Source: a virus
Taxonomy: Duplodnaviria > Heunggongvirae > Uroviricota > Caudoviricetes
IMG/VR virus record: IMGVR_UViG_2529292890_000001
Coordinates: 1-38,560 of that record
DNA: 38,560 bases
Direction: 5' to 3' (one strand)
Both the position numbers and the translations under genes were made by a program. The notes under the pieces are model-generated. The model worked only from the letters and a program-made list of their open reading frames with translations. It did not search any database and had not been told where the DNA came from. Below, one piece after another: positions 1 to 38,560 of the stretch. How positions within the stretch are numbered: the first letter of the stretch is position 1; every line of letters starts with the position of its first letter.

Positions 1-26
1 CGACGAGAAATGTCGGCCCGCATTAT

Positions 27-2270
27 TCAGGCACTTTCGCGAATGGGTTCGATTTCATTCAGCGTATCAATTAACGGTTGCGGCTTACCAATAAGATAAC
101 CCTGCATATAATCGATCCCCAAAGAGAGCACCGCCTCGCGGATCTCTTCGTTTTCAACGTACTCTGCCACTACCCGCATTTTCTTCATTCGCGCCAGGTG
201 GCAAATCGACGCCACTATCTGATAATCCAGACTATTTGACACAATATTGCGGATAAAACTGCCGTCAATTTTAAGCAGATCGGCATTCACATTTTTAAGC
301 CGCGCATAGCTGGCGTAGCCGGTGCCGAAATCATCAATCGCAATCTGGCAGCCTAATTCCTGAAGATGCTGCAAGGTGATTTGCGCCTGCTTAACATTGG
401 TCAGAGCATTACTTTCGGTGACTTCAAAAATAAGTTGCCACGCTTCAATCTGATATTTAGCCAGCAGCTGACTGACTTCAACAGGAAAACGAGCCTGACA
501 TACCGAGGTTGGAGACAGATTAATAGCAAAACGGTGAGCGGGCATCTTCGCTCTGTTTTCAGCCATAAATTGCAGCGTATGCTCAATGACCCACATGTCG
601 ATACTCGACGATAAACCAAATTCGTGCGCGACCGGTAAGAAGCTATCGGGGCTGATCAGTTCATCATTCTCACCTTTCATGCGCAGAAGAATTTCATGGT
701 AGACATCACCACGCATACCGGTAATCGGCTGGGCCATCAGGAAAAAATGGTTGTGTTCCAGCGCCCGCTGTAGCCGATTCATCATCGCGACTTTATCTTT
801 CAATTCGCGTTGCAAATACATTGCTCCGCGACGCTGCATATTTTCCGGGGCGTTGGTCACGATAGAAAGTTCGGCCACTGTATTTAGCTCTCCCAGCAGC
901 AGGTAGATATGATTCACTGGCGAGCGCACATAGCAGTAACTGACGCCAATCTGCGGTTGCATCGGCATTCCATCCCAAAAGAAACGAAATTGCTTGAGAT
1001 GGCTATCCAGTGCGGTAATGCGCTCCTGGTGCGATTCTGTATTCAGCCGCAGCGCGAGATCGTTACCCGAAAGCTGATAAACATCTTCACCCGGTTCCAA
1101 CAATGGTGACAGCCAGTGAGAAAGTTTTTGCTTGTATTGAATCCGCAGCATGATGCCATAATTCTTAACCAGCATTTCCATGCCAGGGATGCGTAAATAA
1201 CAAAGCGCAGACCAGGGGGCATCACGTAACGCGCGATTCAGGGCGCGAACATTTGGCAGATGAACCACCGGGTCCACATACGCAAGCCGCTGAATGCGTC
1301 TGACTACCGCTCGCTGACGGGTTGCCAGTACAGCCATATAATTGACAATAAAAGAGAATACCAGATAACTGGAGGAGGTTATGGTGAGCTGCGTGGTATA
1401 GCCAGGATAAATGGGAATGTAATTTTGATAGCTGTGGATGCTGATCATCAACACGACCGCCCAGAGCAATGAAATCAGCTTATAACCATAGCGCATCGCT
1501 CCCCACATCATCAGGGGCAGCAATAATGACAAGGTGTAATTGGTGCTAAAAATCGTGCTTTTTTCATTTAACGGCATGCATAACAGCAATAGTAAAGCAC
1601 CTAATGCCAGTAGCCAGATTGCGAACTCTTTTTTGGTAACTTTGGCATCAACCTGCTGTTTTAATTGCGAATAATAGCTACGTAAATAAAACGGATTTCG
1701 CACCACCCGAATGATGAAGTAGCACAGCGGGACACCAATCAGATTACCCACCAGCAAGGCCTGATAATTGATTAAGGTCCCGAGGTTAAAGGGCATGACG
1801 CCGACCAGATTTTCTCTGCTCGCCAGTAACCCTACAAACGCAGCAAACTGGAAAAGTATCAGAAACAGCGTTGCAGGAAACACAATCTGCCAGAATAGTC
1901 GCTGGGAAATTAAACGGCTATCACCATGTGAAACGTTGTTACGCCGGGGGGTAAAAACCCTGTAACCGCCCCAACAGAGAATGATAATGATAATAAAATT
2001 AGCCGTTAATGAGAGCGTTTCGTAAAAACCCAGCTCTGCATATTTGCGGACAAAAATCCCTAAGGCGATCCCTGGCAATGCCGCCCAGCTGAAAAACATC
2101 ATCATGCTGATCATCAGTGCCAGTGGCAGATAAAAGAGAAAAACTTCACCGGAAGAAATATGCGCGAAAGTATTAATGTGGGCGAAAATGGGCAAGATTA
2201 AAGAAGGCAGGAACAGCGGAAGCCCCCACCATTTATCACGTATTTTTATATAAGTTGCATTCAGTTTCAT
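27..2270 (-). CDS. pdeF: Cyclic di-GMP phosphodiesterase PdeF (YfgF): N-terminal multi-pass membrane (MASE1-like) domain, degenerate GGDEF, C-terminal EAL
   Basis: 747-aa ORF; hydrophobic N-terminal half; C-terminal EAL-type signatures (QPI..., DDFGTGYASYARLK, EYVENEE); length and neighbours match E. coli yfgF-yfgG-yfgH-yfgI. Confidence 0.88.
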   Translation of the reverse strand: MKLNATYIKIRDKWWGLPLFLPSLILPIFAHINTFAHISSGEVFLFYLPLALMISMMMFFSWAALPGIALGIFVRKYAELGFYETLSLTANFIIIIILCWGGYRVFTPRRNNVSHGDSRLISQRLFWQIVFPATLFLILFQFAAFVGLLASRENLVGVMPFNLGTLINYQALLVGNLIGVPLCYFIIRVVRNPFYLRSYYSQLKQQVDAKVTKKEFAIWLLALGALLLLLCMPLNEKSTIFSTNYTLSLLLPLMMWGAMRYGYKLISLLWAVVLMISIHSYQNYIPIYPGYTTQLTITSSSYLVFSFIVNYMAVLATRQRAVVRRIQRLAYVDPVVHLPNVRALNRALRDAPWSALCYLRIPGMEMLVKNYGIMLRIQYKQKLSHWLSPLLEPGEDVYQLSGNDLALRLNTESHQERITALDSHLKQFRFFWDGMPMQPQIGVSYCYVRSPVNHIYLLLGELNTVAELSIVTNAPENMQRRGAMYLQRELKDKVAMMNRLQRALEHNHFFLMAQPITGMRGDVYHEILLRMKGENDELISPDSFLPVAHEFGLSSSIDMWVIEHTLQFMAENRAKMPAHRFAINLSPTSVCQARFPVEVSQLLAKYQIEAWQLIFEVTESNALTNVKQAQITLQHLQELGCQIAIDDFGTGYASYARLKNVNADLLKIDGSFIRNIVSNSLDYQIVASICHLARMKKMRVVAEYVENEEIREAVLSLGIDYMQGYLIGKPQPLIDTLNEIEPIRESA

Positions 2271-2397
2271 AGATGCTCAGCAGAATCCCCCACATCCTGA
2301 AGGAGGTGTATTCAGACAGGCATCCCACCTGACTTCGAATGATGATTATTCATCACTATAGAGAGCAATGATTCTAAGTGTCATATGAAAGTTCCAA

Positions 2398-2411
2398 TTG
2401 ATATATATCAA
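2398..2411. promoter_or_regulatory. FNR/CRP-family box TTGAT-N4-ATCAA in the pdeF upstream region
   Basis: Perfect inverted repeat ttgatatatatcaa about 130 bp upstream of the pdeF start; pdeF is recalled to be anaerobically (FNR) controlled. Confidence 0.5.
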
Positions 2412-2621
2412 ACAAAATAACCCTGATTAATGAATTATTACGTTTATCATGTTAACTCATCATTATTACATCATCATTGTAAATAATTAAATTAACTTTC
2501 ATAACATTAAAATATGTATCAACTGACGCTTTTTTACATAACGAAGAATTGACCATTTTGTCCTGTTGTGCCTTAATGTAAGTACCGTCCACGGCGTGGG
2601 ACATACTTCAAGGAACCTTTT

Positions 2622-2813
2622 GTGAGTCAGGCAACCAGTATGCGAAAACGACACCGATTTAACAGTCGCATGACCCGTATCGTACTGCTCATCAGCTTTA
2701 TCTTCTTCTTTGGCCGTTTTATCTACTCGTCCGTCGGTGCCTGGCAGCACCATCAGAGCAAAAAAGAAGCTCAGCAATCCACACTCTCCGTCGAATCACC
2801 GGTACAACGTTAG
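2622..2813 (+). CDS. yfgG: Small protein YfgG (63 aa)
   Basis: 63-aa ORF in the conserved position between yfgF and yfgH; hydrophobic central segment. Confidence 0.75.
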   Translation: MSQATSMRKRHRFNSRMTRIVLLISFIFFFGRFIYSSVGAWQHHQSKKEAQQSTLSVESPVQR

Positions 2814-3123
2814 CGGTTACCTTCTCCACTCTCACAGAACATAACGGCACCTCGCTGTCGGATGCTTTTGCTCTTTGAGATTATCAAAGCGGCAGATATT
2901 CTTTCATCTTAAATTTTACGTCTTTGTTCTGACTGAAGTTCATCCTGTTCGGCTGCGAAATAAATACATCATTAATACATATGTTGTGATGATGTATTTT
3001 TATAAATTATTTCCCGCATGAATTTTAATAAATTTAATCTATTCCTTTATACGCAATACATTTACTTTCCTCTTTTGATGATCTTAAATGTCTCATTTTT
3101 CGTAATGTGTATAACAAGGAATA

Positions 3124-3642
3124 GTGATGAAATTTAAAAAATGTCTTCTGCCTGTGGCAATGTTAGCGTCATTCACTCTGGCAGGATGCCAGTCAAATGC
3201 TGATGATCATGCCGCCGATGTTTATCAAACCGATCAACTGAATACCAAACAAGAAACTAAAACCGTTAATATTATTTCCATTCTTCCCGCAAAAGTTGCC
3301 GTAGACAACGCCCAAAATAAACGGAACGCACAAGCCTTCGGCGCGCTTATTGGCGCTGTCGCTGGCGGTGTTATCGGCCACAACGTCGGGTCTGGCAGCA
3401 ATTCCGGAACGACGGCAGGTGCAGTTGGCGGCGGAGCTGTAGGCGCGGCAGCGGGTTCGATGGTGAATGATAAAACCTTAGTGGAAGGTGTTTCTTTAAC
3501 ATATAAGGAAGGCACCAAAGTGTATACCTCCACCCAGGTGGGTAAAGAGTGCCAGTTTACGACAGGTTTAGCCGTTGTTATTACCACGACGTATAACGAA
3601 ACGCGTATTCAGCCAAATACCAAATGTCCTGAAAAGAGCTAA
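3124..3642 (+). CDS. yfgH: Outer-membrane lipoprotein YfgH (glycine-zipper)
   Basis: 172-aa ORF; signal peptide with lipobox LAGC; Gly/Ala-rich glycine-zipper segment. Confidence 0.8.
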   Translation: MMKFKKCLLPVAMLASFTLAGCQSNADDHAADVYQTDQLNTKQETKTVNIISILPAKVAVDNAQNKRNAQAFGALIGAVAGGVIGHNVGSGSNSGTTAGAVGGGAVGAAAGSMVNDKTLVEGVSLTYKEGTKVYTSTQVGKECQFTTGLAVVITTTYNETRIQPNTKCPEKS

Positions 3643-3657
3643 TAATCAGGAGGAGTC

Positions 3658-4197
3658 ATGAAGAAAGTTTTTCTTTGCGCCATCTTAGCCTCCTTAAGCT
3701 ATCCGGCTATCGCCTCATCATTGCAGGATCAACTCTCGGCTGTCGCAGAAGCGGAACAGCAAGGTAAAAATGAAGAGCAAAGGCAGCATGACGAATGGGT
3801 CGCGGAGCGCAACAGGGAAATCCAGCAAGAGAAGCAACGTCGCGCAAACGCCCAGGCCGCGGCTAATAAAAGAGCGGCAACGGCAGCAGCGAATAAGAAA
3901 GCTCGTCAGGATAAACTGGACGCCGAAGCCACTGCGGACAAAAAACGCGATCAAAGTTATGAAGATGAGCTACGTAGCTTAGAGATTCAGAAACAAAAAC
4001 TGGCGCTGGCGAAAGAAGAAGCCCGCGTCAAGCGCGAAAACGAATTTATCGATCAGGAACTGAAGCACAAAGCTGCGCAAACCGATGTGGTGCAATCTGA
4101 AGCTGACGCAAACAGAAATATGACTGAAGGCGGTCGCGATCTGATGAAAAGCGTGGGCAAAGCAGAAGAGAACAAATCGGACAGCTGGTTTAATTAA
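3658..4197 (+). CDS. yfgI: Uncharacterised secreted coiled-coil protein YfgI
   Basis: 179-aa ORF with signal peptide and charged K/E/R/A/Q-rich low-complexity body; RBS AGGAGG upstream; conserved position. Confidence 0.8.
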   Translation: MKKVFLCAILASLSYPAIASSLQDQLSAVAEAEQQGKNEEQRQHDEWVAERNREIQQEKQRRANAQAAANKRAATAAANKKARQDKLDAEATADKKRDQSYEDELRSLEIQKQKLALAKEEARVKRENEFIDQELKHKAAQTDVVQSEADANRNMTEGGRDLMKSVGKAEENKSDSWFN

Positions 4198-4235
4198 TCG
4201 ATGTAAGTAACTTCAAGCCTATAATTCTTGAAGAT

Positions 4236-4268
4236 AAAAAACCCTCTGTAGTAACAGAGGGTTTTGTT
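4236..4268. terminator. Bidirectional rho-independent terminator (yfgI / guaA 3' end)
   Basis: A5, stem ccctctgt, loop agta, stem acagaggg, then TTTTGTT; A-tract on one side and T-tract on the other. Confidence 0.7.
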
Positions 4269-4291
4269 CATTCATAGTGCAGGGATCAAAA

Positions 4292-4306
4292 TCATTCCCA
4301 CTCAAT
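4292..4306 (-). other. guaA: Putative guaA 3'-terminal fragment (…I-E-W-E-stop) marking the prophage attL junction
   Basis: Minus strand reads ATT GAG TGG GAA TGA with an in-frame stop directly upstream, so only the last codons of a GMP-synthase-like C terminus are present; phage-like sequence starts at about 4307. Confidence 0.5.
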
Positions 4307-4416
4307 TATTCACGGACACCATAACCAATTGAGTGATAACATTTTTCCAAAGATGAATTTTTCCCATACCGTTTTATATACCGTCACCGGAAATCAGTAC
4401 CATGAAAAATGCCATG

Positions 4417-4899
4417 CTATCTGGTCAGGGTGTCGTACTGTTTTTCGCAGACTCTTCCGGCTTCGGCTGCCCGGTCAGCATACTCTGCCAGTTGTCTGTT
4501 TCTCTCGAGAGATTTGCTGAGCACGTCGGCAAGCAAAACTCCGGTGTCTGCGGCTGACGACCCAGCGCCGACAATGGCGTTATAGTGCCTGAGCTGCTCA
4601 CGGATGGCAACGAGCTGTTGCTGCAACCGGCCAGCGCGAGCGGCAGCATCAAGAGCATCATTGCGCGCCTGGTCGATCCTCTGCTGCGATTCACGTTCAT
4701 TGATCGCTTTCTCCTGTTCGTAGTGCTGACGAACTCTCTCATCTTCAGTTTTGCGGTCTTCTTTCGCCTGAGCATACCCGGCGTCGTACTGACGACTGCC
4801 GTGCACATTCCAGGCAACAACTCCTGATGTGGCAAGAACAGCAAGCATCGCCACGATAATCAAATGTTTCCAGTATGCTTTTACGAATGCCCAGATCAT
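4417..4899 (-). CDS. i-spanin (Rz-like)
   Basis: 160 aa; N-terminal TM helix then charged coiled-coil; start overlaps the endolysin stop (ATGA); contains an embedded +1-frame lipoprotein ORF. Confidence 0.75.
4425..4700 (-). CDS. o-spanin (Rz1-like lipoprotein) embedded in the Rz frame
   Basis: Internal ATG at 4700 preceded by AGGAG; signal peptide with lipobox LALAG-C; Pro-containing mature part; alternative starts at 4661 or 4658. Confidence 0.55.
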   Translation of the reverse strand: MNVNRSRGSTRRAMMLLMLPLALAGCSNSSLPSVSSSGTITPLSALGRQPQTPEFCLPTCSANLSRETDNWQSMLTGQPKPEESAKNSTTP

Positions 4900-5525
4900 A
4901 CAGCCAGCACCTTACTGGCAATGATGTATCGGGCGCGGCGGTCATCAATGCCGTTCCGGCCACCATTGATAATCAGAGTTACACGTGCAATATCGCCGGT
5001 ATACTTCATGCAGCCTTTGCTGGAGAAGAACCAGGCCGCGCTACGGGCCGCGTATTCGTCCTGTGCCAGCAGTTCAGGATTCTCCAGCAGGTCAACTTTC
5101 AGACCGTTTCCGCAGTCACGATAGTTATTCAAGCCGGTAATCTGGATAAGTCCGCGCCCACGGTAGTTCCAGCCATCACCAGGGGCATTGTTCCCCATGC
5201 GTTTGCTGTACACCAGATTGGCGATAGCGCGCTGTCGCTCAAGTGGTAATGCTGCTTCACCAGCACGGCGACCCAGTGCATTAGCCTGCCCCTGGGTGAG
5301 ACGCCCAGCCCGAACGAAGTTAGCCAGTCCGGTGACACTGTAGTTGAAATTTTCCTGCAACCGGGTGAAGCCCCCAGACTCATGCCCGACCTGAGCAATA
5401 AACATTGCCTGATCTTCGGGTTTGCTGATTCCAAACTCTTTCATCGCAGAAGTTATATGCAAGAACCAGCGTTCGGCCAGCGCCTCGCTAATACCAGCAG
5501 CACGCTGGAATTGTTTAATCTCCAT
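4896..5525 (-). CDS. Endolysin, glycoside hydrolase family 19 (chitinase-like)
   Basis: 209 aa; motifs QVGHESGGF and [19 protein letters not shown] typical of GH19 phage endolysins. Confidence 0.8.
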
Positions 5526-5823
5526 GTTTAGACCTCGTTATTTTGAAAATTTGAACGACGTTACCGCGAGTTTTAAGAACCGCAGCAAGCATGACAGCGT
5601 TAATAATGACCTCAGATAAATCCACAGCCATTGGCGTACGTAACCAGATTGCATAGGCGACTCGAACAGGAATACTGGCCGCAGCAACAATCAGGAAATA
5701 AGCAAGCCATCCTCCCCACCTTCGGTGTTGAGAGCCGTTACGCCGGAATGTGACAACGCGAATTGCTATGCCAGTGCAAATAACTGCATTGGTGATAAGC
5801 AAAAAAAACTCATGCGTTACCAT
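5515..5823 (-). CDS. Small multi-pass membrane protein in the lysis cassette (holin partner or antiholin candidate)
   Basis: 102 aa with 3 predicted hydrophobic helices; sits between the holin-like and endolysin genes with overlapping ends. Confidence 0.45.
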
Positions 5824-6214
5824 CGTCTTTTCTCCCCGGAATTAACTCGCGTGGATTATCGGAAAGGTGATAGAGCCATATACCAATACGCACAGCGACA
5901 ATTGCTGACACGAATGCGCCTGCAGAGAAAACAATCCCTTTTTCAAAAGAGTCCTGCGTGATGGTAGGGATCAGGCTAGCTATGCCGATAAGAATTGATG
6001 CTGCTGGTTTGTAAAAGAGAAGGCCGCAAAGAAAGCTGAGCATCGACATGAGCACCCGGCGACGGATGGGGTACTCTACTGCAGAGGTAACAAAAATTAC
6101 CGCCCCAGCCAAAGCCCCTAAAGCAACCTCCGGAGGGACACCTGCAATAACCGCAGCAAGAGAACCAAAACTAAGCAACTGATTTAATTGCTCACTTGTT
6201 ACTTGAGCAGACAT
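5810..6214 (-). CDS. Putative holin
   Basis: 134 aa with 3-4 hydrophobic helices and charged C terminus; strong RBS (AGGAGA); first gene of the cassette upstream of the endolysin. Confidence 0.55.
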   Translation of the reverse strand: MSAQVTSEQLNQLLSFGSLAAVIAGVPPEVALGALAGAVIFVTSAVEYPIRRRVLMSMLSFLCGLLFYKPAASILIGIASLIPTITQDSFEKGIVFSAGAFVSAIVAVRIGIWLYHLSDNPRELIPGRKDDGNA

Positions 6215-6485
6215 ACTTTCTCCTGTTTACTATCTATAAGCCAGTCAATTATTGATGACTAAACCCGCATAGTAAACCATATATGAATCATTATTGTTCC
6301 ATATCATATATCTCAATAAAAGTACTAATTATTTTACAGAACGAGCCAGCAGAGTGGGGGCAGTTGTACAGGAACCATAGACTTAATTTTGTATTTAATA
6401 ATGCTATGGTGTAATAAACCTGAACATGTATTTAAAATACGTACTGATTCATGATAGAATTCAAAGATAACTTTTCACCAACTCC

Positions 6486-6513
6486 GTTTTTGATACCCGC
6501 AAAATATTGCGGG
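6486..6513 (+). terminator. Hairpin plus T8 (plus-strand intrinsic terminator) between tailspike and lysis cassette
   Basis: cccgcaaaatattgcggg followed by cttttttttaa; on the minus strand the same hairpin is preceded, not followed, by the homopolymer. Confidence 0.45.
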
Positions 6514-6520
6514 CTTTTTT

Positions 6521-9500
6521 TTAACGTTCTTCCAGAGACTGAATCCGCTCTTTTATCTTATCCATTTCTCTGCGCTGCCATGCTGCCTCGATATAGAATA
6601 AGAGATCAGGTCTGACCCCCCATCTAGATCCTGCTGGCGTTATTTCAACGCGCTCAATGATGTCTTCCATTACCATCACTGGATTATCATCCTCATCAAC
6701 AATGATGCTCCCGTCATTATCAGTCAGCTGTATTTCCCTTTGGCCAGTAATGACGTCATCATATACTGCGGGATAATCGTCATAGCAAAGAAAGGCATAG
6801 CGGCATGTTGTGCTTTCTTCTTCCATGAGTCCGTGAGAAATAAGAACATCACGAAGTTGCTGCGCGATTACACCATGATGTATCCTCGCCCCTTCTTCTC
6901 CCTTTATAGCGACAGCGTTCAGCCATTTATAAGCGATATACCTGACGTCACCCCAGGCATCCAGCAATGCTTCGTCAGGAGAGACCGGCTCTGTCTTTAA
7001 TGTTCCGTCACTGGTAACCACAGGATTGGAGCCAAGATAAACTGTCGAGAACCTGTTTCCCGGACCACCAAGAGCATTTACATTATCAAGATAAGGTTTA
7101 ACATCTCCGTTCTCAAAAAGATGTTCGAGTGCGTTATATACCGCGCGACGTGGAGTACTGCTTCCGGAACCATGCAACGTTATCATTGCACCATCTGCTG
7201 AAGACGTTGTTTCACCGCCGCTAACGATTAATCTCTGAGCGGTAACATCATCAGACGGTACTTTCTTCGCAATAATGGCGTAATTGCCCTCCAGTTTGAC
7301 TTCCGCGCGAACTTGTCCTGATGTACCTGCATGGACAGTCAGTGACTGGACGGCAACATCATCTGTGAAATCAACGGGTACAGGAACCGTCCTCACGCCG
7401 GACGTCGACATAAAAGTAGGAAGCGTTCTGTTAGGAGTGGCTCCGTAGACAAAATCCCTTGAAACAAATTCTTCCTGTTTAATTTTCACCCTGAAACAAT
7501 ACAAATCAGCCGGGTGACCATCGTGAACATAAGGATATTTTCTGTTGTTATCCCCTATGCTCCATGGGTTTAGAAAGTCTTCCCCACCGAAAATGTAGTA
7601 CAGCCAGTTGTCTTTGATACAAACTGAACCAACACCAACCGCAGAGTTAACTATTCCGCCCTGATAAATCTGATCAGTAACATTAACCCACTCTACATTA
7701 TCCAGACTCCACTCATTGACGTTAACTCTGGTCATAAATGTTCTTGGATAATTTCCTGCATAACGGTTATCAGGTTCTCCTCCTTCCCACTCACCAAATG
7801 CGCGCTCACTGCCAAAAATAATCAGCTCATCGCCAACTTTGGCAAAAGGAAGGTTTGAGTGATGAACATTATTTGGGAAGCGAAGAGAATTCCATGATGC
7901 ACCTAAATCAGAGCTTCTGTGCAATGAACTACCGGGTTGAGTACTTAATGTCCCCCTGGTCGTCAGATACAGAATGCCATCATAATATTTTACACATGGC
8001 TCAGATGCATTCGCCTCATATTCTGCAGGTATGCGTCTGCGAACAAAGCTACCAGGAGAACCGAAAGCATCAGAGAAATAGAGTATCCCAAGCTCGCGTG
8101 GACCAATATCACCATTATGGTAGCCAACAGCAAAACTGTTATCGCTAATCGTCGCAAAACTGTGAATCTCAGTAACAGGAGTGCTTCCGTCAACAAAAGA
8201 AGAAATAGTTCCAAGACTGGTTTTTCTCCATGGTGACGAGTGAAATGATGTACCAAAACTCCAGTATCTACCCTCGTTATTCTGATCCACATCCTGAGTA
8301 TTTTGCGTCGTAACTGTAAAAGTATTTTTATCAATAACAGTAGTCACCGTCATATTCCCGGTAACACCTGTAACACCAGAGTTTGAGAAGTTGACAAAAT
8401 CACCAGCAAATAATCCGTGATCAGTAATGCGAATATAAGCGACTTGCTGATTTGCTGCTTTCGTTATACCACCATAAACGCGAAGGCTGCGACTCATTGG
8501 ACGATCCCACAACTCTGCAACCTGCAGTTTATTTCCGCGCACGGTCCGCGTCTCAATTACAGCAAAAAGGCGATTTCTGACAACCCCCATACTCATGCAG
8601 TGATAGTTAACTGTGGGATAGTTTTCATGTAAATCTGTAAGCCATTCCGGCGTTGTCCAGGTCTTCCCGTCATCTCCTGAGCGAACCCATGCAACATGGA
8701 GGTTATTTACACCATGGCGGTCTCCAGCCATAAAAGGCGCATAGATGACATTGTCATATACAAACGTTTTATCCTGCGTCCAGGCGTTGTACCACGGTGT
8801 ATCTGTAATTTTAAATAACTCTCCCTGGATAAAATCTTCAGAAGCATAAAAAAGAGGCTGACCCGGTATTCTCTCAAATAAAAAACGAGCATTTTTAAAT
8901 CGGCTGACATCCGGAAGAGTTGATACTTTAAAAGTAAGCCCTAATCCGTCAATTTTATAACCTGGAGATGAGGCTTCAAGGCACGCGCTTATTGCAGTGG
9001 AATCGTCATTTATACCATCACCAACAGCTCCAAAATCTTTGGGGCTAATAGCATCACGCATTTTATCCTGGAACGTTCGGTATACTGCCCCAGAACCATA
9101 CTGAATAAACCAACCAAAACCACCAACAACCCCGGCGATTGCAGCATCGACATAATTACGCATTGAGCGATTATTTACAGCGTCCTGTTCAAGTGATGGA
9201 TCTGCAAGGTTAGAAATTCTGTTTTGCTTTGCATCGTAATATTTTGCAAGCAAAGATGGTTTCATCAATGCACGTCTGAACCATCCAAAACATTGCTGGA
9301 TCAGCATCGTCAGGTAGTCAAAGGCATCTTCATGCACTTCGGGGAAAAACTTTCCCTGATTGCGAAGGTCTGTCTCCTGCACTACATCAAGCACACGATC
9401 TATCGTAATTCTCCATCCAGTAGCAAGCGGCGACGGAAGAACCACAGAACCGCCACTATAAGTGCCCGCCCCAGTTACCGTATAACCGGTATCCAGAACC

Positions 9501-9640
9501 AATTCTGTTACGTTCCCGTTCAGGTCAGACACCTGAACAACCAGGTCGGATTTTCTGAAAATTCGAAAAGTATACGGAAACGATGTCGTAACGCCGTTAC
9601 CGGTGTATTCGTTGTGGTCAACTTCGGTTGAGACCGTCAT
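6521..9640 (-). CDS. Tailspike / receptor-binding depolymerase: N-terminal particle-binding domain, central beta-helix and BNR (Asp-box) region, C-terminal self-cleaving chaperone (peptidase S74-like)
   Basis: 1039 aa; DFGAVGDGINDDSTAI (pectate-lyase-like beta-helix start); Asp boxes SGDDGKTWT and SSDLGASW; C-terminal ...VVTS-DGTLK... followed by a helical LE-rich tail. Confidence 0.8.
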   Translation of the reverse strand: MTVSTEVDHNEYTGNGVTTSFPYTFRIFRKSDLVVQVSDLNGNVTELVLDTGYTVTGAGTYSGGSVVLPSPLATGWRITIDRVLDVVQETDLRNQGKFFPEVHEDAFDYLTMLIQQCFGWFRRALMKPSLLAKYYDAKQNRISNLADPSLEQDAVNNRSMRNYVDAAIAGVVGGFGWFIQYGSGAVYRTFQDKMRDAISPKDFGAVGDGINDDSTAISACLEASSPGYKIDGLGLTFKVSTLPDVSRFKNARFLFERIPGQPLFYASEDFIQGELFKITDTPWYNAWTQDKTFVYDNVIYAPFMAGDRHGVNNLHVAWVRSGDDGKTWTTPEWLTDLHENYPTVNYHCMSMGVVRNRLFAVIETRTVRGNKLQVAELWDRPMSRSLRVYGGITKAANQQVAYIRITDHGLFAGDFVNFSNSGVTGVTGNMTVTTVIDKNTFTVTTQNTQDVDQNNEGRYWSFGTSFHSSPWRKTSLGTISSFVDGSTPVTEIHSFATISDNSFAVGYHNGDIGPRELGILYFSDAFGSPGSFVRRRIPAEYEANASEPCVKYYDGILYLTTRGTLSTQPGSSLHRSSDLGASWNSLRFPNNVHHSNLPFAKVGDELIIFGSERAFGEWEGGEPDNRYAGNYPRTFMTRVNVNEWSLDNVEWVNVTDQIYQGGIVNSAVGVGSVCIKDNWLYYIFGGEDFLNPWSIGDNNRKYPYVHDGHPADLYCFRVKIKQEEFVSRDFVYGATPNRTLPTFMSTSGVRTVPVPVDFTDDVAVQSLTVHAGTSGQVRAEVKLEGNYAIIAKKVPSDDVTAQRLIVSGGETTSSADGAMITLHGSGSSTPRRAVYNALEHLFENGDVKPYLDNVNALGGPGNRFSTVYLGSNPVVTSDGTLKTEPVSPDEALLDAWGDVRYIAYKWLNAVAIKGEEGARIHHGVIAQQLRDVLISHGLMEEESTTCRYAFLCYDDYPAVYDDVITGQREIQLTDNDGSIIVDEDDNPVMVMEDIIERVEITPAGSRWGVRPDLLFYIEAAWQRREMDKIKERIQSLEER

Positions 9641-9743
9641 GTTAAATCTCCAGATAGTCGCAGCACCCGTTGCGCCGCATATCTGGTCATTCTATTACCT
9701 AAAAAACCACATATGGATAGAAAGACTGTGAATACGAATAGAT

Positions 9744-9760
9744 ATTACCTTTCGGGTAAT
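9744..9760 (-). promoter_or_regulatory. Dispersed palindrome copy A: ATTACC-TTTCG-GGTAAT
   Basis: 17-bp inverted repeat about 100 bp upstream of the tailspike start; a half-site ATTACC (9694-9699) plus AACCACATATG (9705-9715) lies between. Confidence 0.55.
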
Positions 9761-9798
9761 TTGCAAAACGTGCTGGATAGCAAACAAATTATTTGCTA

Positions 9799-9814
9799 CT
9801 GTATAAATATACAG
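9799..9814. promoter_or_regulatory. LexA (SOS) box CTGT-N8-ACAG
   Basis: 20-mer tactgtataaatatacagtt (9797-9816) matches the LexA consensus taCTGTatatatatACAGta; overlaps a TATAAAT -10-like element about 25 bp upstream of the 9837 ATG. Confidence 0.7.
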
Positions 9815-9836
9815 TTATTGCATGGAGAATATTAAG

Positions 9837-10094
9837 ATGCAGCAGTATCACTATCCACTGGAAGACGGATTTACCGAAAGGATTCACACGCCGGGAGGCG
9901 TCAGGTCACTGGTGGAGGGATCGCACTTGATGAAATTACTCCGGGATCTCGATAAGGATGGATTTAATGTCGATGGCCCACTTGCCGAACTGACTGCACT
10001 GATTAACTACGTCACCAGCTCACAGATGTCTATGCAGGATCTGCAAACACATCTCGACTATTGTGCCGAACAATTACGAAAACAAACCCGGTAA
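9837..10094 (+). CDS. Small SOS-controlled protein, candidate antirepressor (paralog of the C-terminal domain of the BRO-N protein at 11245-11931)
   Basis: 85 aa from the ATG at 9837 (RBS GGAG; the track ORF starts at 9822); about 45 percent identical to the last ~65 residues of the BRO-N protein; LexA box immediately upstream. Confidence 0.6.
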   Translation: MQQYHYPLEDGFTERIHTPGGVRSLVEGSHLMKLLRDLDKDGFNVDGPLAELTALINYVTSSQMSMQDLQTHLDYCAEQLRKQTR

Positions 10095-10116
10095 ATTTAA
10101 AGGCCGCAAGAGCGGC

Positions 10117-10845
10117 CTATCGTTTCGCTTTGTGCTCATCCCAGCACGTTTTGCACCATGCCATTAAGCCGTCCGCATTTTGATTATTAGGGTAAAAGCT
10201 GGTTCGTTTTCTGCGGACATTACAAATTGGGCACCACTTCATATGGCGTGTATTCTTTGGGCCATCGAGACACCTTGCACACCACTTAGTCAATCCATCT
10301 GGATTTTTTGACGATTTCCTGAATTTTTCATATGGAAGGTTTATTCTGCATCGCAAGCACTGCTTGCTACCACTTGAAACTCTGTTAGCTGATTCTTCTT
10401 TTGGCGGCGATACAGAAGGTATTCTTGCTGGCTCTGATACTGCCTGAGGTGCTTTTTTAGATGACTGAGACGATATGTCATCACCAGGGAATCTTCCATG
10501 ATATGCCGGACGCGTTGACACTCCAGGTGGAAGCTCAGCTGTAAACGGCTTTGGCTGAATCAGTTGCCTCTCTTTTGCTAACTCCTGCTGTTTATAATAT
10601 GTCTGGATTACCGCACTATCATAAGCAGGAGGTGCGGAAATATTAGGCGCATTACCTCCAGTTTTTTGAAACTGAGTAGAGGTGTGTTCTATCACCTGTG
10701 TACGATTAATCGTTATCTCCCCATCTTCGGTCTTTATCGTTTTGTTATGATTAACGACCGTACGATCAGAGATCTTAGTCTTGTTCTGGTTGATAACGTA
10801 AATAATCACCGCAACCACACCAACAACTATCCAGAAAACTTCCAT
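10117..10845 (-). CDS. Membrane-anchored protein with C-terminal tandem CxxC zinc-ribbon repeats; function unknown
   Basis: 242 aa; N-terminal TM helix, S/T/P/Q-rich linker, C terminus with CLRC...WCARC...WCPIC...WCKTC; RBS GAGG; two palindromic motif copies upstream. Confidence 0.6.
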   Translation of the reverse strand: MEVFWIVVGVVAVIIYVINQNKTKISDRTVVNHNKTIKTEDGEITINRTQVIEHTSTQFQKTGGNAPNISAPPAYDSAVIQTYYKQQELAKERQLIQPKPFTAELPPGVSTRPAYHGRFPGDDISSQSSKKAPQAVSEPARIPSVSPPKEESANRVSSGSKQCLRCRINLPYEKFRKSSKNPDGLTKWCARCLDGPKNTRHMKWCPICNVRRKRTSFYPNNQNADGLMAWCKTCWDEHKAKR

Positions 10846-10864
10846 TGCTTTTCCTCACAATAAC

Positions 10865-10881
10865 ATTACCTTAAAGGTAAT
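10865..10881 (-). promoter_or_regulatory. Dispersed palindrome copy B: ATTACC-TTAAA-GGTAAT
   Basis: 20 bp upstream of the start of the Zn-ribbon membrane protein gene. Confidence 0.55.
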
Positions 10882-10957
10882 ATCTTGCTTTCAGGTGATC
10901 AAGCGTTAAACGCAATCAACCAAATACGGTTGATTTTTATATTTATCAGCGTTTATC

Positions 10958-10974
10958 ATTACCTTTGCGGTAAA
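10958..10974 (-). promoter_or_regulatory. Dispersed palindrome copy H: ATTACC-TTTGC-GGTAAA
   Basis: Second copy 93 bp from copy B in the same intergenic region. Confidence 0.5.
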
Positions 10975-11063
10975 TTTACATCGCACTCCTCTTGTGCCAT
11001 AGTAATCGAGCACTGGCAAAATCCAGTGCCGGGATTTGCACCCCGGATTACTAAAAGGCGCAT

Positions 11064-11086
11064 ACCACGCCAGACGTGGTTTTTTT
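11064..11086 (+). terminator. Candidate intrinsic terminator in the leader upstream of the BRO-N gene
   Basis: accacg-ccaga-cgtggt followed by T7. Confidence 0.4.
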
Positions 11087-11244
11087 ATGCGTATAGCACA
11101 GTCATGCCAGAATTATGGTGGGACGTGCAGGGGCACCGAAAGGTGCGCCGGGTCCTTTTAGCCGGTAGTGCAAACCCTGTACGTCTCACCACCAACGAGA
11201 TTTGCACCTCAGGTGGTGATTAACCATACTAAAAGGTGATTGCC

Positions 11245-11931
11245 ATGACTGCTAACGTAACCCCATCTGTTTTTCATTTTGAATCAGAAGCAACCATTCG
11301 AGCCATTGTTATTGATGGAAATCCTTGGTTTGTTGCCAAAGACGTTATTAAAGCTCTTCAACTGACAAACCCCACCATGTCAATCAAATCTCTTGATGAT
11401 GATGAAAGGGCTAAATTTAACTTAGGTCGTCAAGGCGAAACCAATATTATCAGCGAGTCAGGCCTCTACACACTGATCCTCCGCTGCCGCGATGCGGTGA
11501 CACCAGGCACTATCCCCTACCGCTTTCGTAAATGGGTTACAGGTGAGGTTCTTCCTCAGATCCGCCGCACCGGAAGTTACATTAAAAACTCGCTCCCGCA
11601 GGAAGAACGCATAAAGATGGTTGCCGACCAGGTAGCCAACGCCACAGCATCAGCAGTGATGCAGGCGATGAAGATAGAGAACAAAACCTACAGTGCCCCA
11701 CTGAAGCCCGGCTACCGCAGCCTGATTCACTCGCCGTCTGGTGTTCTCGGCCTGACGGAGAACTCACTGCTGATGAATCTGTTGAACCAGTTACAGGAAG
11801 ACGGGCACGACGTATCGGGCGCGGCGGCGGAGCTGACCACCATGTTCTGCTACATCGTCGGTGTGAGCAAATGCCTGCGTGATATCCAGACTCACGCGGA
11901 GTACATCAACGACAAAGCAGGATTCTTCTGA
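11245..11931 (+). CDS. BRO-N domain protein (antirepressor-like, two-domain)
   Basis: N-terminal FHFESEATIRAIVIDGNPWFVAKDVIKAL is a BRO-N signature; C-terminal domain paralogous to ORF 9837-10094; ATG at 11245 with RBS AAAGGTGA (track ORF uses GTG at 11236). Confidence 0.65.
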   Translation: MTANVTPSVFHFESEATIRAIVIDGNPWFVAKDVIKALQLTNPTMSIKSLDDDERAKFNLGRQGETNIISESGLYTLILRCRDAVTPGTIPYRFRKWVTGEVLPQIRRTGSYIKNSLPQEERIKMVADQVANATASAVMQAMKIENKTYSAPLKPGYRSLIHSPSGVLGLTENSLLMNLLNQLQEDGHDVSGAAAELTTMFCYIVGVSKCLRDIQTHAEYINDKAGFF

Positions 11932-12002
11932 CGGGCGGCGGCACAGGGATGTGCCTTTAAATAATTCTGTACAGATTGCAGACTGGGGGTGAATAGAGTA
12001 CT

Positions 12003-12019
12003 ATTACCCCAAAGGTAAA
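12003..12019 (+). promoter_or_regulatory. Dispersed palindrome copy K: ATTACC-CCAAA-GGTAAA
   Basis: 26 bp upstream of the plus-strand small membrane protein gene; spacer orientation flipped relative to copies ahead of minus-strand genes. Confidence 0.5.
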
Positions 12020-12044
12020 CCGAGAGTTTACATGAGGGGGAAAC

Positions 12045-12233
12045 ATGGAAATCAACATCATTACATTGCTGAAGGCCATTATTGGCGGAGCGGGCTTAGG
12101 CTTTGCCCTACCAGGCGGATTATCTTTCCTGCTTCCTGCTTTTACTGTTACAGCTGGGATAGCCTATGCATTTGCTGTGGCTGGTGCTGTTGCACTCCCT
12201 GCTATCTATGCCGCAAAGAAGTTAGCCAACTAA
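12045..12233 (+). CDS. Small hydrophobic Gly/Ala-rich membrane protein (62 aa)
   Basis: Two predicted TM segments with GxxxG/AxxxA packing motifs; RBS GAGGGGG; palindromic motif 26 bp upstream. Confidence 0.5.
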   Translation: MEINIITLLKAIIGGAGLGFALPGGLSFLLPAFTVTAGIAYAFAVAGAVALPAIYAAKKLAN

Positions 12234-12234
12234 A

Positions 12235-12567
12235 ATGCCTGATTTATCTTGGCTTGCGCCCAGAGATGCACAGCAATTGACAAGGTTTTATTTCATACTG
12301 TGCATTGCTTATCTTGCTGTTCATCTGATATGGGATGCCGTTTGCAAAGATACGCCTCCTTTTTCTTTGGATAAGTTGCAATACAAGATGAATGAGGTTT
12401 ATTCATCATCTACTTTTGCAACCAGCGCATTCTTCATTGTTATTCTGTTCGATATGAAGAATCCACTGAGAACTTCAGATGCTTTCATATTCCCATTAAT
12501 TATTGCTGCTCTAACTGGCTTTATGATCTCATTATCAGCAATAGTGCCAAAGAAAGTAAATAACTGA
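12235..12567 (+). CDS. Membrane protein (110 aa, 3 predicted TM helices), translationally coupled to the preceding gene
   Basis: Start 1 nt after the upstream stop; hydrophobic helices; followed by an intrinsic terminator. Confidence 0.5.
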   Translation: MPDLSWLAPRDAQQLTRFYFILCIAYLAVHLIWDAVCKDTPPFSLDKLQYKMNEVYSSSTFATSAFFIVILFDMKNPLRTSDAFIFPLIIAALTGFMISLSAIVPKKVNN

Positions 12568-12570
12568 ATA

Positions 12571-12592
12571 AGCCCGCGTTGCGGGCTTTTTT
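12571..12592 (+). terminator. Rho-independent terminator
   Basis: agcccgc-gtt-gcgggct followed by TTTTTT. Confidence 0.7.
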
Positions 12593-12664
12593 ATGGACGA
12601 AACAAAAGTCAGTGCTACACTCATTGACGCCACATCGAGGTGGCTTATAGATGGAAATGTCACA

Positions 12665-12826
12665 ATGAAAAAAGCATTTGCTGCACTGTTCGTTTTGTTG
12701 TCTCTGGTAGCTTCAACTCAGGCCTTTGCCGGTCGTTGTCAGCACGACAGCGACACTGCTGCTGACGGCTCCCGCTGCGGTGGGCGTTCTGCGGATTCCC
12801 GCCCGGGTGGCGGTGGCATTCGTTAA
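12665..12826 (+). CDS. Small secreted or periplasmic Cys-containing peptide (signal peptide plus ~31-aa mature part)
   Basis: Internal ATG at 12665 gives MKKAFAALFVLLSLVASTQAFA followed by GRCQHDSDTAADGSRCGGRSADSRPGGGGIR; the longer track ORF begins inside the upstream terminator. Confidence 0.4.
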   Translation: MKKAFAALFVLLSLVASTQAFAGRCQHDSDTAADGSRCGGRSADSRPGGGGIR

Positions 12827-21259: not shown

Positions 21260-23730
21260 CAGAATCCCCCAACAGTAAGACGAGGAATAACGGCAAGAAC
21301 AGACAGCGGCAACGGATCAAGCTGACGGATTTTTACACGTCCGTTTTTGCCCCAGTTACTGTCTAGTTTCACTTCTACTTTTCCGGTAGCATCATCAACA
21401 GGATCATCGTAGAACTCGAATTCACGCTGTGGATATTCGTACCATTTACCGCCGGGCGTAGTCGCCCAGATGCCGCGACTGGCATTCACAACCAGAGTAA
21501 CGGAGGGGATCACCTGTTTTTTGTCCAGCAGCGTTTCCTGTCCGTTAATGTTGATATCCAGTGTTTCGAATTCAGCAGTTATTGGCAGGCCGATGTGCAC
21601 TACAGCCCCCGGAGATTCCAGCGTGACGGCACCTCCGGAAACCACTTTCTGTGGTTCCACGTTCGCATCAGAGAGAATGTTTACGGTCTGGCCTTCAAGA
21701 TGAGACAGGCCTCCAAATGTCCGGCGCGCCATCTGCCAGTTCGTGGTGGCCACATTCCTGAGGGATGGCGGGACGTTCCTGTTAGCACGAACCACTACAG
21801 CGGTATTGCTGGTTACAGAAATAATGTCGCAACGTAATTCTTTTGACACTTCATCGCCAGTATCAGGATCAGTTCCGGTATAAGGGAACTGTAGTTGCGC
21901 ACCGACATCACTACTGGTGAAGTACGCACCACCAGAAACACTGATTGTATATTCCGCGCGGTAATCCCATTCGCCAGAACCACCAGTGATTGTCATCGTT
22001 CTGTCAGACGTATTTCTTCCATCATAGCTAAGGCCAGAATCAACAAAGAAAGCGTCTTCATCGCTGGTAAATAAACGGCTGGACAGCCGCTCGATGTATC
22101 TCACTGTTTGCCCGTTAACGGTTCGGTTAACGACGAAATACACCGCATCTTCATTGCCTTCGCTGATACTGCATGTGCTTTCATATTTTCCGGTACTGGA
22201 TTGTGGTGCCCATGCAAAAACCTGCTGATCACGCAAATAGGTCATCACCAGTAATTTACCGTCATCACGAATGCAGAAGGCGCTGGAGTAAGGGACAATA
22301 GAGAAGCACCAGTCAACAATGCTGTGCTTCTGAAAAAGATGATTGGCAAGGATAGTAAGGTCGTTCCCCTGATAGCCGTCAACATCGAATGAATAGGCCA
22401 GATCACGGACAACACTGCCTTTCTCCTGGACGAACAGAGCAATATTCGCCACGGCAATTGGTGGGACGTTGCTTGAGCCATTTGATCCCTGAGAGCTGAA
22501 TGCAAATGATGATGGGGTTAACACTTTGTTCTGGTCGCCGGTGATGACGTACTCACCTCCGGAAGTCAGCGCCACCAGCGAACCAACATCAATCAGGTGG
22601 CGGATCTCATTAACCTGACGCCCGGCATAGGTGTAGATAATTCTGTCGTCATCCTGCGTAGGATTGCTTTTGCCAAAATCCTTATAATCCCCGGTACGGC
22701 TGGCCCAGATAGTCTGAGGGAACGCAGTCGATGCGGCGAAGTAAAGACGTTGTTGATAATAAACAACAGTGCCAGGATAACCATTAACACTGTTCCAGGC
22801 ATATTTAGCCCATTTATAGCTGGCATTATCCTCGCCAACGACCTGCGAAGGAATATAGGAAATCACCTCGGCAGTTGCAGTAGTTCCATTTGCAGCAGTG
22901 ATACGGGCAATGCCAAAACCACTGTGCAGATATTCCCACTCAATGCCAGTATCATCATCACCGGATCCACCCCAGCCATCCCATGATGTGCCTTCTGTAT
23001 GCGAAGGGCGCAAAGTACCTGTTTTGCCTGCTGTAACGGCGCGATAGTAGTTACTGTCTGCACGGCGAATATCGCCAATCGACGTACTCTTACTGGTTTC
23101 CCATACCGGCACTGAATCCACTGCAGGCTGTTCCAGATAGAACAATTTGCCTACCTGCTCCGCGCCAAAAATAGAGGCGCTTGCCGTTAACGTAATTGTC
23201 CCGGTGCTGGCGCTGGCATAAACCGTCACTGACTCGTCAATATTGATATCTTCAAATGGCCCGTTCTTCGTTACCACATCAACCAGTTGCCAGTTGTCAT
23301 GAGCATAGCGACGCAACTCTTTCGGCGGGTATGCCGGATGAACAAGCGTAAGCACGTCGGCGCTTTGCGTGAATTTAATTCGGAACAGATCGGCTTCAGT
23401 ATATGGCGTGGCAATTTCATAAATAACATTGCTGCTGTTCAGCACCAACGCACCATCTTTGATAACGCGCATGTACTGGTGTCCGAACTCCAGAGCATAG
23501 GTCTGAACCGTCGAGAACTGGAACGGGATCAGGCGGCATTTCCGATTTGGGTATTTGGCGGCACCGACAAAACGCGTACCTGGTCGATTCTCAACGCCGC
23601 CATACTGCCGCACGATAAAGTTATCGCACTTGCGCAATGCCACCTGGTACTTCGCCATGTCAATACGCCCGTACAACGACGGTCCAATCTCACCACCGGC
23701 AAAGCTGGGCTGGATCCAACTGATAGCCAT
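21259..23730 (-). CDS. Tail nozzle protein (T7 gp12 / tail tubular protein B-like)
   Basis: 823 aa; N terminus MAISWIQPSFAGGEIGPSLY resembles the T7 gp12 N terminus; directly follows the gp11-like gene. Confidence 0.55.
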   Translation of the reverse strand: MAISWIQPSFAGGEIGPSLYGRIDMAKYQVALRKCDNFIVRQYGGVENRPGTRFVGAAKYPNRKCRLIPFQFSTVQTYALEFGHQYMRVIKDGALVLNSSNVIYEIATPYTEADLFRIKFTQSADVLTLVHPAYPPKELRRYAHDNWQLVDVVTKNGPFEDINIDESVTVYASASTGTITLTASASIFGAEQVGKLFYLEQPAVDSVPVWETSKSTSIGDIRRADSNYYRAVTAGKTGTLRPSHTEGTSWDGWGGSGDDDTGIEWEYLHSGFGIARITAANGTTATAEVISYIPSQVVGEDNASYKWAKYAWNSVNGYPGTVVYYQQRLYFAASTAFPQTIWASRTGDYKDFGKSNPTQDDDRIIYTYAGRQVNEIRHLIDVGSLVALTSGGEYVITGDQNKVLTPSSFAFSSQGSNGSSNVPPIAVANIALFVQEKGSVVRDLAYSFDVDGYQGNDLTILANHLFQKHSIVDWCFSIVPYSSAFCIRDDGKLLVMTYLRDQQVFAWAPQSSTGKYESTCSISEGNEDAVYFVVNRTVNGQTVRYIERLSSRLFTSDEDAFFVDSGLSYDGRNTSDRTMTITGGSGEWDYRAEYTISVSGGAYFTSSDVGAQLQFPYTGTDPDTGDEVSKELRCDIISVTSNTAVVVRANRNVPPSLRNVATTNWQMARRTFGGLSHLEGQTVNILSDANVEPQKVVSGGAVTLESPGAVVHIGLPITAEFETLDININGQETLLDKKQVIPSVTLVVNASRGIWATTPGGKWYEYPQREFEFYDDPVDDATGKVEVKLDSNWGKNGRVKIRQLDPLPLSVLAVIPRLTVGGF

Positions 23731-29863: not shown

Positions 29864-29940
29864 GTGGCATTAGCTCAGTTGGACAGAGCAACCGCCTTCT
29901 AAGCGGTTGGTCGCAGGTTCGAATCCTGCATGCCACGCCA
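29864..29940 (+). tRNA. tRNA-Arg (anticodon UCU), phage-borne
   Basis: 77 nt; acceptor GTGGCAT/ATGCCAC; D arm GCTC/GAGC; anticodon stem accgc/gcggt with loop CTTCTAA; T arm gcagg-TTCGAAT-cctgc; discriminator G plus CCA. Confidence 0.85.

Positions 29941-38529: not shown

Positions 38530-38560
<31 letters not shown>

Follow-up and report, generated by a model that had tools for sequence, protein, structure and literature searches.

The contig analysed here, a 38,560-nt stretch of DNA referred to throughout as the window, carries at positions 4290-4306 what is almost certainly the left attachment site (attL) of a prophage inserted at the 3' end of guaA, namely a temperate podovirus of the genus Uetakevirus whose nearest isolate is ZX5, followed by phiV10 and, more distantly, epsilon15. 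This is an already known phage attachment site, which had been correctly recognised in an initial annotation made from the sequence alone, and guaA most probably stays intact. The attachment site, the integrase cluster and a K1-specific member of the genus have been published, and nothing in the feature is new biologically; the sole mildly new point is that the phage carries its own homologue of the guaA terminator, which may already be in print.

The left junction and its attachment core

The features on both sides of the junction are as follows.

3658-4197, plus strand: yfgI (DUF5384), the last host gene ahead of the junction (Pfam DUF5384, E = 4.1e-62; yfgI in the annotations of K-12 and FDAARGOS_1303)
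4238-4265, no strand assigned: intrinsic terminator hairpin of the host, flanked by yfgI and guaA, which are convergent (terminator scan, RNA fold)
4290-4306, no strand assigned: 17-bp att core AATCATTCCCACTCAAT, attL copy, proposed strand-exchange site (pairwise identity and published core)
4292-4306, minus strand: orphan guaA terminus (IEWE-stop) remaining at attL (translation; the same bases end the annotated guaA in K-12)
4310-4312, minus strand: TGA stop of the phage P' arm, in frame with the orphan IEWE and upstream of it by two codons (codon table, translation)
4417-4899, minus strand: Rz-type i-spanin (DUF2514), the last phage gene before attL (Pfam PF10721, E = 3.5e-42; the phiV10 homologue is an Rz-like spanin)
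4425-4700, minus strand: embedded Rz1 o-spanin with lipobox LALAGC (+1 frame translation; position and length match phiV10p30a)

The plus strand at 4292-4306 reads TCATTCCCACTCAAT, and its reverse complement, ATT GAG TGG GAA TGA, translates to I E W E followed by a stop, namely the final four codons and stop codon of guaA at the left junction of the prophage, in agreement with the initial annotation, which had read a guaA-like ending (TIEWE-stop) on the minus strand after the yfgI terminator. The minus-strand codons directly upstream of IEWE are ATA (4307-4309) and TGA (4310-4312), the latter being the stop that had been placed immediately upstream, implying that there is no guaA body on the attL side. 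The sequence then becomes phage, and the Rz stop that had been called at 4417 is indeed the end of the DUF2514 spanin ORF. On the host side, the hairpin at 4238-4265 consists of 12 pairs (AAAACCCTCTGT-TACT-ACAGAGGGTTTT, with a T-run on the minus strand in the terminator scan; RNA fold z = -3.7) and is also found in unoccupied K-12; in the lysogen, it remains at attL, downstream of the phage Rz/Rz1 genes.

A two-base length polymorphism was observed at 4282-4291, directly to the left of the core, where the window and E. coli D8 read gggatcaaaatcatt and K-12 and FDAARGOS_1303 read gggtcaaatcatt. The polymorphism belongs to the host arm, and the core is not evidently affected by it.

The length of the core was determined by extending identity outward from the 15-mer in all pairings of attL (window), attR (E. 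coli FDAARGOS_1303), attB (K-12), and attP (phiV10). Exact identity continues for 2 nt on the left side and for 0 nt on the right, giving the 17-bp core AATCATTCCCACTCAAT at 4290-4306, where at least 15 bp had been predicted; as expected, this limit is exceeded only in pairings whose partners have a flanking arm in common. The core is the exact reverse complement of attgagtgggaatgatt, which has been reported as both the attP core of ZX5 and its attB at the guaA 3' end, with attB, attL, and attR confirmed by PCR and Sanger sequencing and with the same attP sequence in phiV10 and epsilon15 (PMC9782041). Tyrosine integrases of the 'epsilon15 cluster' all target the guaA 3' flank (PMC8138268), and a phiV10-related phage has been found inserted in guaA (PMC3293862), so that the statement in the initial annotation that epsilon15-type phages use guaA as attB agrees with the published core and integrase cluster.

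We compared the junction with unoccupied sites by using window 3000-5200 as a megablast query on 5,426 complete E. coli genomes, 5,421 of which were matched. In the great majority, including K-12 W3110, the alignment extends from the start of the query to its base 1307, which is window position 4306, and then ends, exactly where host homology had been expected to stop (near 4306). In these unoccupied genomes it runs continuously from yfgH/yfgI, and its last 15 bases lie inside the annotated guaA. The alignment carries on into the phage lysis genes in 531 of the 5,426 genomes (545 with window 1-6500 as the query), and a related prophage thus occupies the guaA junction in about 10% of the complete E. 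coli genomes.

Within the window, the 15-mer at 4292-4306 occurs exactly once, and a search for a second core copy with up to 2 mismatches returned only a match at 22930, inside a virion gene and at chance level (0.17 matches predicted by shuffles with 2 mismatches allowed). The real second core copy, attR, lies past the contig end. That the junction is an assembly chimera, or the 15-mer a chance occurrence, appears extremely improbable: although the poly-G run at the window end is of the kind that sequencing artefacts typically produce and marks the assembly as a draft, more than 500 genomes finished independently of one another share exactly this yfgI-core-Rz junction, the core matches an experimentally confirmed att site base for base (PMC9782041), and the low number of matches expected from shuffles speaks against chance.

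Identity and gene content of the prophage

The part of the prophage contained in the window and its main genes, in addition to the Rz/Rz1 pair, are listed below.

4307-38531, no strand assigned: Uetakevirus (ZX5/phiV10-like) prophage, left ~34 kb, integrase end missing (identity to ZX5, phiV10, and FDAARGOS_1303)
4896-5525, minus strand: GH19 endolysin (Pfam Glyco_hydro_19; annotation of relatives)
6521-9640, minus strand: endosialidase tailspike, a K1 polysialic-acid capsule depolymerase (Pfam End_beta_propel, E = 3.6e-232)
29864-29940, plus strand: tRNA-Arg (anticodon TCT) between the portal and terminase regions, also present in the FDAARGOS_1303 annotation

The segment at 4307-38531 comprises lysis genes, the endosialidase tailspike, virion genes, terminase, and, at the window end, replication genes. 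Nucleotide identity over the virion module is 97.3-97.8% to vB_EcoP_ZX5 and ~96% to phiV10, and the module as a whole is 96-98% identical to those of HEMP4, phiv142-3, phiV10, and ZX5, with accessory genes forming a mosaic. From 4307 onward, the window aligns to phiV10 starting at the core of the latter and is collinear with the free-phage attP. The tailspike also contains End_tail_spike, End_N_terminal, and Peptidase_S74 domains (Pfam), and such a complete endosialidase with its C-terminal chaperone domain implies that the prophage is specific for the K1 capsule. The best-matching genomes include APEC/ExPEC strains of serotypes O1:K1 and O2:K1, and the host was probably a K1-encapsulated E. 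coli of the ExPEC/APEC type carrying a ZX5-like endosialidase phage.

Considering that the guaA 3' end is a common hotspot, the junction might instead belong to some other, non-phage element targeting guaA, either of the GIsul2 type or a small decayed island. The insertion site of GIsul2, GAGTGGGA, lies inside the 17-bp core (PMC9376610), and integrase-less islands of 3.3-3.8 kb occupy the same position in E. coli D8 and STS73-1-E. However, what adjoins the core on its right is the P' arm of phiV10/ZX5, followed by Rz/Rz1 and then by ~34 kb of contiguous Uetakevirus genes, and the small islands have shorter, imperfect repeats (common TCCCACTC, GIsul2-type GAGTGGGA) and different arms. A GIsul2-type island is refuted because the element is a phage of ~40 kb whose core measures 17 bp and whose genes include those for capsid, portal, terminase, and lysis, and we give this alternative in general hardly any weight.

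Several other occupants of the same site were observed. The island in D8 (L004, 7291-10625; ~3.3 kb) contains an AAA ATPase, a transposase-type pseudogene, and a response regulator, and that in STS73-1-E (L005, 7289-11122; ~3.8 kb) contains two DUF262 proteins. At their right junctions guaA ends in GAG TAG or GAG TGA, which are synonymous endings, yet the protein accession is the same, indicating that the elements evidently supplied their own gene end. In Klebsiella phage ST11-OXA245phi3.2 (MK416010; L012, 605-1019), the complete guaA of the host stands beside the integrase under the annotation 'GMP synthase domain protein'; this record is a prophage excerpt overrunning attR, implying that related Klebsiella elements use the guaA site.

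The far end of the prophage in a near-identical lysogen

The closest complete genome is that of E. coli FDAARGOS_1303, whose prophage is 100.0% identical over window 13561-38534 (25 kb) and only 99.6% identical to window 1-6500; 100% identity to the host flank and to the window end together was found in none of the 5,426 complete genomes of E. coli. The far end of the window's prophage is inferred here from such relatives and could be rearranged or deleted in the source strain. The gene order in FDAARGOS_1303 begins with yfgI, followed by Rz, endolysin and holins, and the endosialidase tailspike, continues with epsilon15-type virion genes, tRNA-Arg and terminase and with replication genes, recT and a methyltransferase, and ends with a tyrosine integrase (Pfam domains Arm-DNA-bind_3, Phage_int_M, and Phage_integrase), guaA, and guaB. 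A second core copy, separated from the first by 40,763 bp, lies at the stop codon of guaA; it represents attR and adjoins both the integrase and an intact guaA, the arrangement that had been anticipated for the other prophage end. GuaA of this strain has 525 aa, 524 of which are identical to K-12, and the C-terminus is ...PPATIEWE in both.

The window itself is without attR, integrase, and guaA. Beyond the position equivalent to its end, the integrase of FDAARGOS_1303 starts 5,052 and guaA 6,495 bases on; the initial annotation had placed both just beyond the window, whereas in FDAARGOS_1303 the distance is ~5.1 and ~6.5 kb, respectively. The window ends with 29 G's (38532-38560) at a point where relatives continue normally, and its last ~20-26 bases are matched by no relative, which looks like a poly-G artefact of two-colour chemistry at the contig end. 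Because the contig stops at this run, the end of the prophage that would hold the immunity, recombination, and integrase genes is absent from the window.

Since the insertion point lies within the guaA frame and attL retains only an orphan fragment with a stop upstream, one might suspect that the insertion inactivates or truncates guaA and leaves the lysogen reliant on the phage or on guanine salvage. This is very hard to reconcile with the lysogen, in which the core copy at attR completes the frame and the product ends as it does in K-12, and with the finding that ZX5 lysogeny has no significant growth effect (PMC9782041). For annotation purposes, the left boundary of the prophage is fixed exactly at the core (4290-4306), and the guaA-like tail of 15 bases at attL is to be read as a scar of recombination and not as a pseudogene; what the annotator gains is that guaA is most probably intact elsewhere in the genome.

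Proposed integration at guaA

It is proposed that the tyrosine integrase, through its Arm-DNA-binding, central, and catalytic domains, would recombine the 17-bp AATCATTCCCACTCAAT of attP, positioned between Rz/Rz1 and int in the phage, with the identical chromosomal 17 bp, made up of the final four codons of guaA, its stop codon, and two further bases. A core copy would thereby come to lie at either end of the prophage. At attR, outside the window, the guaA body would be joined to a core copy, leaving GuaA unchanged, and the guaA 3' UTR and terminator would now be those of the phage P arm, located between guaA and int; at attL, the orphan 15-base guaA tail and the original host terminator would be left downstream of the phage lysis genes. 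Integration and excision at the guaA core by the integrase of the window prophage itself are assumed by analogy, the experimental confirmation being that of ZX5.

The initial annotation held that the phage restores guaA from its own attP copy. An intact guaA is found at attR of FDAARGOS_1303, as it had predicted for the other junction, but no coding sequence beyond the core is provided: as the core already holds the last four codons and the stop codon, the phage restores nothing coding outside it and would supply only the 3' UTR and terminator.

Repeats in the attP arms

The attP of the window prophage was reconstructed and aligned with those of phiV10, epsilon15, SPN1S, Tyrion, BUCT554, PAT1, and BUCT711, giving eight attP sequences from phages of four host genera (Escherichia, Salmonella, Enterobacter, and Klebsiella). 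Two sets of repeats in the window are relevant here.

4299-4335, no strand assigned: inverted repeat CACTCAATT (4299-4307) / AATTGAGTG (4327-4335), one arm in the core and the other in the P' arm
4366-4388, no strand assigned: repeats of the P' arm, ATACCGT at 4366-4372 and ATACCGTCACC at 4378-4388, which are candidates for arm-type binding sites of the integrase

A 20-base block, atcattcccactcaattatt, is invariant across the eight aligned attP, the block taccgttttatataccgtcac is unchanged in all eight phages, and ATACCGTCAC-type repeats are kept on both attP arms; a scan of the whole window found ATACCGTCAC nowhere else. In phiV10, GGTGACGGTAT/ATACCGTCA occurs three times in attP, on both arms and as one further, inverted copy. 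The GenBank record of epsilon15 annotates terminator, RNase III, IHF, and integrase sites in the attP region, the 'integrase' binding site being placed beside Rz, in the portion of the P' arm where the repeats occur. The P' arm repeats are putative arm sites of the integrase.

There are two inverted repeats in attP, each pairing one half of the core with an arm. The one at 4299-4335 folds with -18.1 kcal/mol (z = -4.1) and is kept, with some changes, in the eight Uetakevirus attP. The hairpin formed by the core and the P-arm repeat folds with -38.1 kcal/mol (z = -8), and among nine distinct sequences its positions that depart from Watson-Crick pairing are G.U in 22 cases vs A.C in 2, an excess that hints at a role at the RNA level and that is weak evidence, since the core strand is G-rich and the sequences are related. 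We also considered whether the inverted repeats (4299-4307/4327-4335 and the P-arm copy) might be core-type integrase sites. Their spacers are 19-22 nt, and the overlap regions of tyrosine recombinases are typically 6-8 bp, far below this, which speaks against such sites; the G.U bias, weak as it is, also suggests an RNA. The inverted repeats may still be core-type sites.

Homology between the phage and host terminators

Terminators are predicted on both sides of the prophage, and that of the P arm is located as follows.

L002 (attR of FDAARGOS_1303) 45869-45892, no strand assigned: phage P-arm terminator, with the same 10+10-base stem as window 4238-4265

This intrinsic terminator, AACCCTCTGT-TTTT-ACAGAGGGTT followed by a T-run, lies 46 bases beyond the guaA stop at attR and is conserved among the attP. 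The order predicted at attR of the window prophage is guaA, core AATCATTCCCACTCAAT, ~46 nt, hairpin AACCCTCTGTTTTTACAGAGGGTT, and an integrase gene pointing away from guaA. As guaA and int point in the same direction with the hairpin between them, the latter would be expected to end guaBA transcripts and keep them out of int. The 10+10-base stems of the host terminator remaining at attL and of the phage terminator are identical, a similarity far too great for coincidence.

A scan of one genome per species for the arrangement 'guaA end, 20-50 nt, stem' yielded 26 loci, a number which, as the exact stem was required, says nothing on how general the hairpin is. These loci form three groups. The first consists of Escherichia species with a host spacer of 25-27 nt. 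The second comprises nine loci with a 46-nt spacer followed by an integrase 82-89% identical to that of the FDAARGOS_1303 type, which are prophages in Klebsiella, Kluyvera, Citrobacter, Scandinavium, and Superficieibacter. In the third, found in Citrobacter, Buttiauxella, and Serratia, the hairpin occurs without an integrase beside ordinary host genes (NapC/NirT cytochrome, MASE1-EAL, and hybrid histidine kinase), and such neighbors favor a native origin of these loci over old insertion scars; two Citrobacter loci, whose spacers are identical to that of the phage at 30-32 of 46 positions, may nevertheless be insertion scars. The presence of the stem after guaA in loci without an integrase, together with the scan as a whole, implies that the core-to-terminator stretch of the phage P arm is homologous to a host guaA 3' flank, and homology of the phage terminator with the host guaA terminator is, as judged from sequence comparison, well supported.

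Escherichia- or enterobacterial-type guaA ends with the terminator were also observed in two assemblies labelled as Gram-positive, namely a 336-nt contig of Brevibacterium sp. UMB10442 (L026; coverage 0.76) and Vagococcus sp. WN89Y (L035). They probably reflect contamination of these assemblies.

A broader interpretation, which we advance only tentatively and hold with rather less than even confidence as a whole, is that integration might amount to a like-for-like swap of RNA 3'-end modules. The ~95 bases of the P arm between the core and the terminator, with the latter included, could be a diverged copy of an enterobacterial guaA 3' UTR and terminator, complete with a hairpin pairing to the region of the guaA stop codon and with the stem AACCCTCTGT/ACAGAGGGTT. 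The displaced host terminator would then end the late operon of the prophage, guaBA would still be terminated, and int would be shielded from read-through. The G.U excess would in that case mean that the hairpin works at the RNA level, one example being the RNase III site predicted for epsilon15.

Comparison with known systems

The closest system is vB_EcoP_ZX5 (MW722083; Uetakevirus; host E. coli O87:H52:K1), which is 97.3-97.8% identical over most of the prophage in the window and shares with it the 17-bp core, integration at the guaA 3' end, and an endosialidase-type tailspike. However, at megablast level ZX5 leaves uncovered ~20% of the prophage over its left 8.5 kb and ~34% over its left 24.7 kb, gaps that imply a mosaic of accessory genes, and the window phage is known only as a prophage on a truncated contig. 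The O157:H7-specific phiV10 (NC_007804) has Rz/Rz1, attP, an annotated terminator, and int in the same order, and its attP region, including arm repeats and terminator, is nearly identical, but it covers only 38% of window 4307-12800 and carries another tail fibre and an O-acetyltransferase (O157 specificity) in place of the endosialidase. In epsilon15 (AY150271), the core, terminator hairpin, inverted repeats, and arm repeats are likewise found in attP, whereas nucleotide identity is only ~76-82%, the host is Salmonella, and the tailspike and serotype-conversion genes differ.

GIsul2 and related guaA islands target the same gene end, but GIsul2 is a non-phage resistance island of ~15 kb with a shorter core. 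The lambdoid phage 21 and e14 likewise insert at the 3' end of a protein-coding housekeeping gene, icd, and make good the lost end by replacing ~50 codons with their own version. At guaA, by contrast, the identical core takes in all of the coding sequence concerned, and nothing but the UTR and terminator is exchanged.
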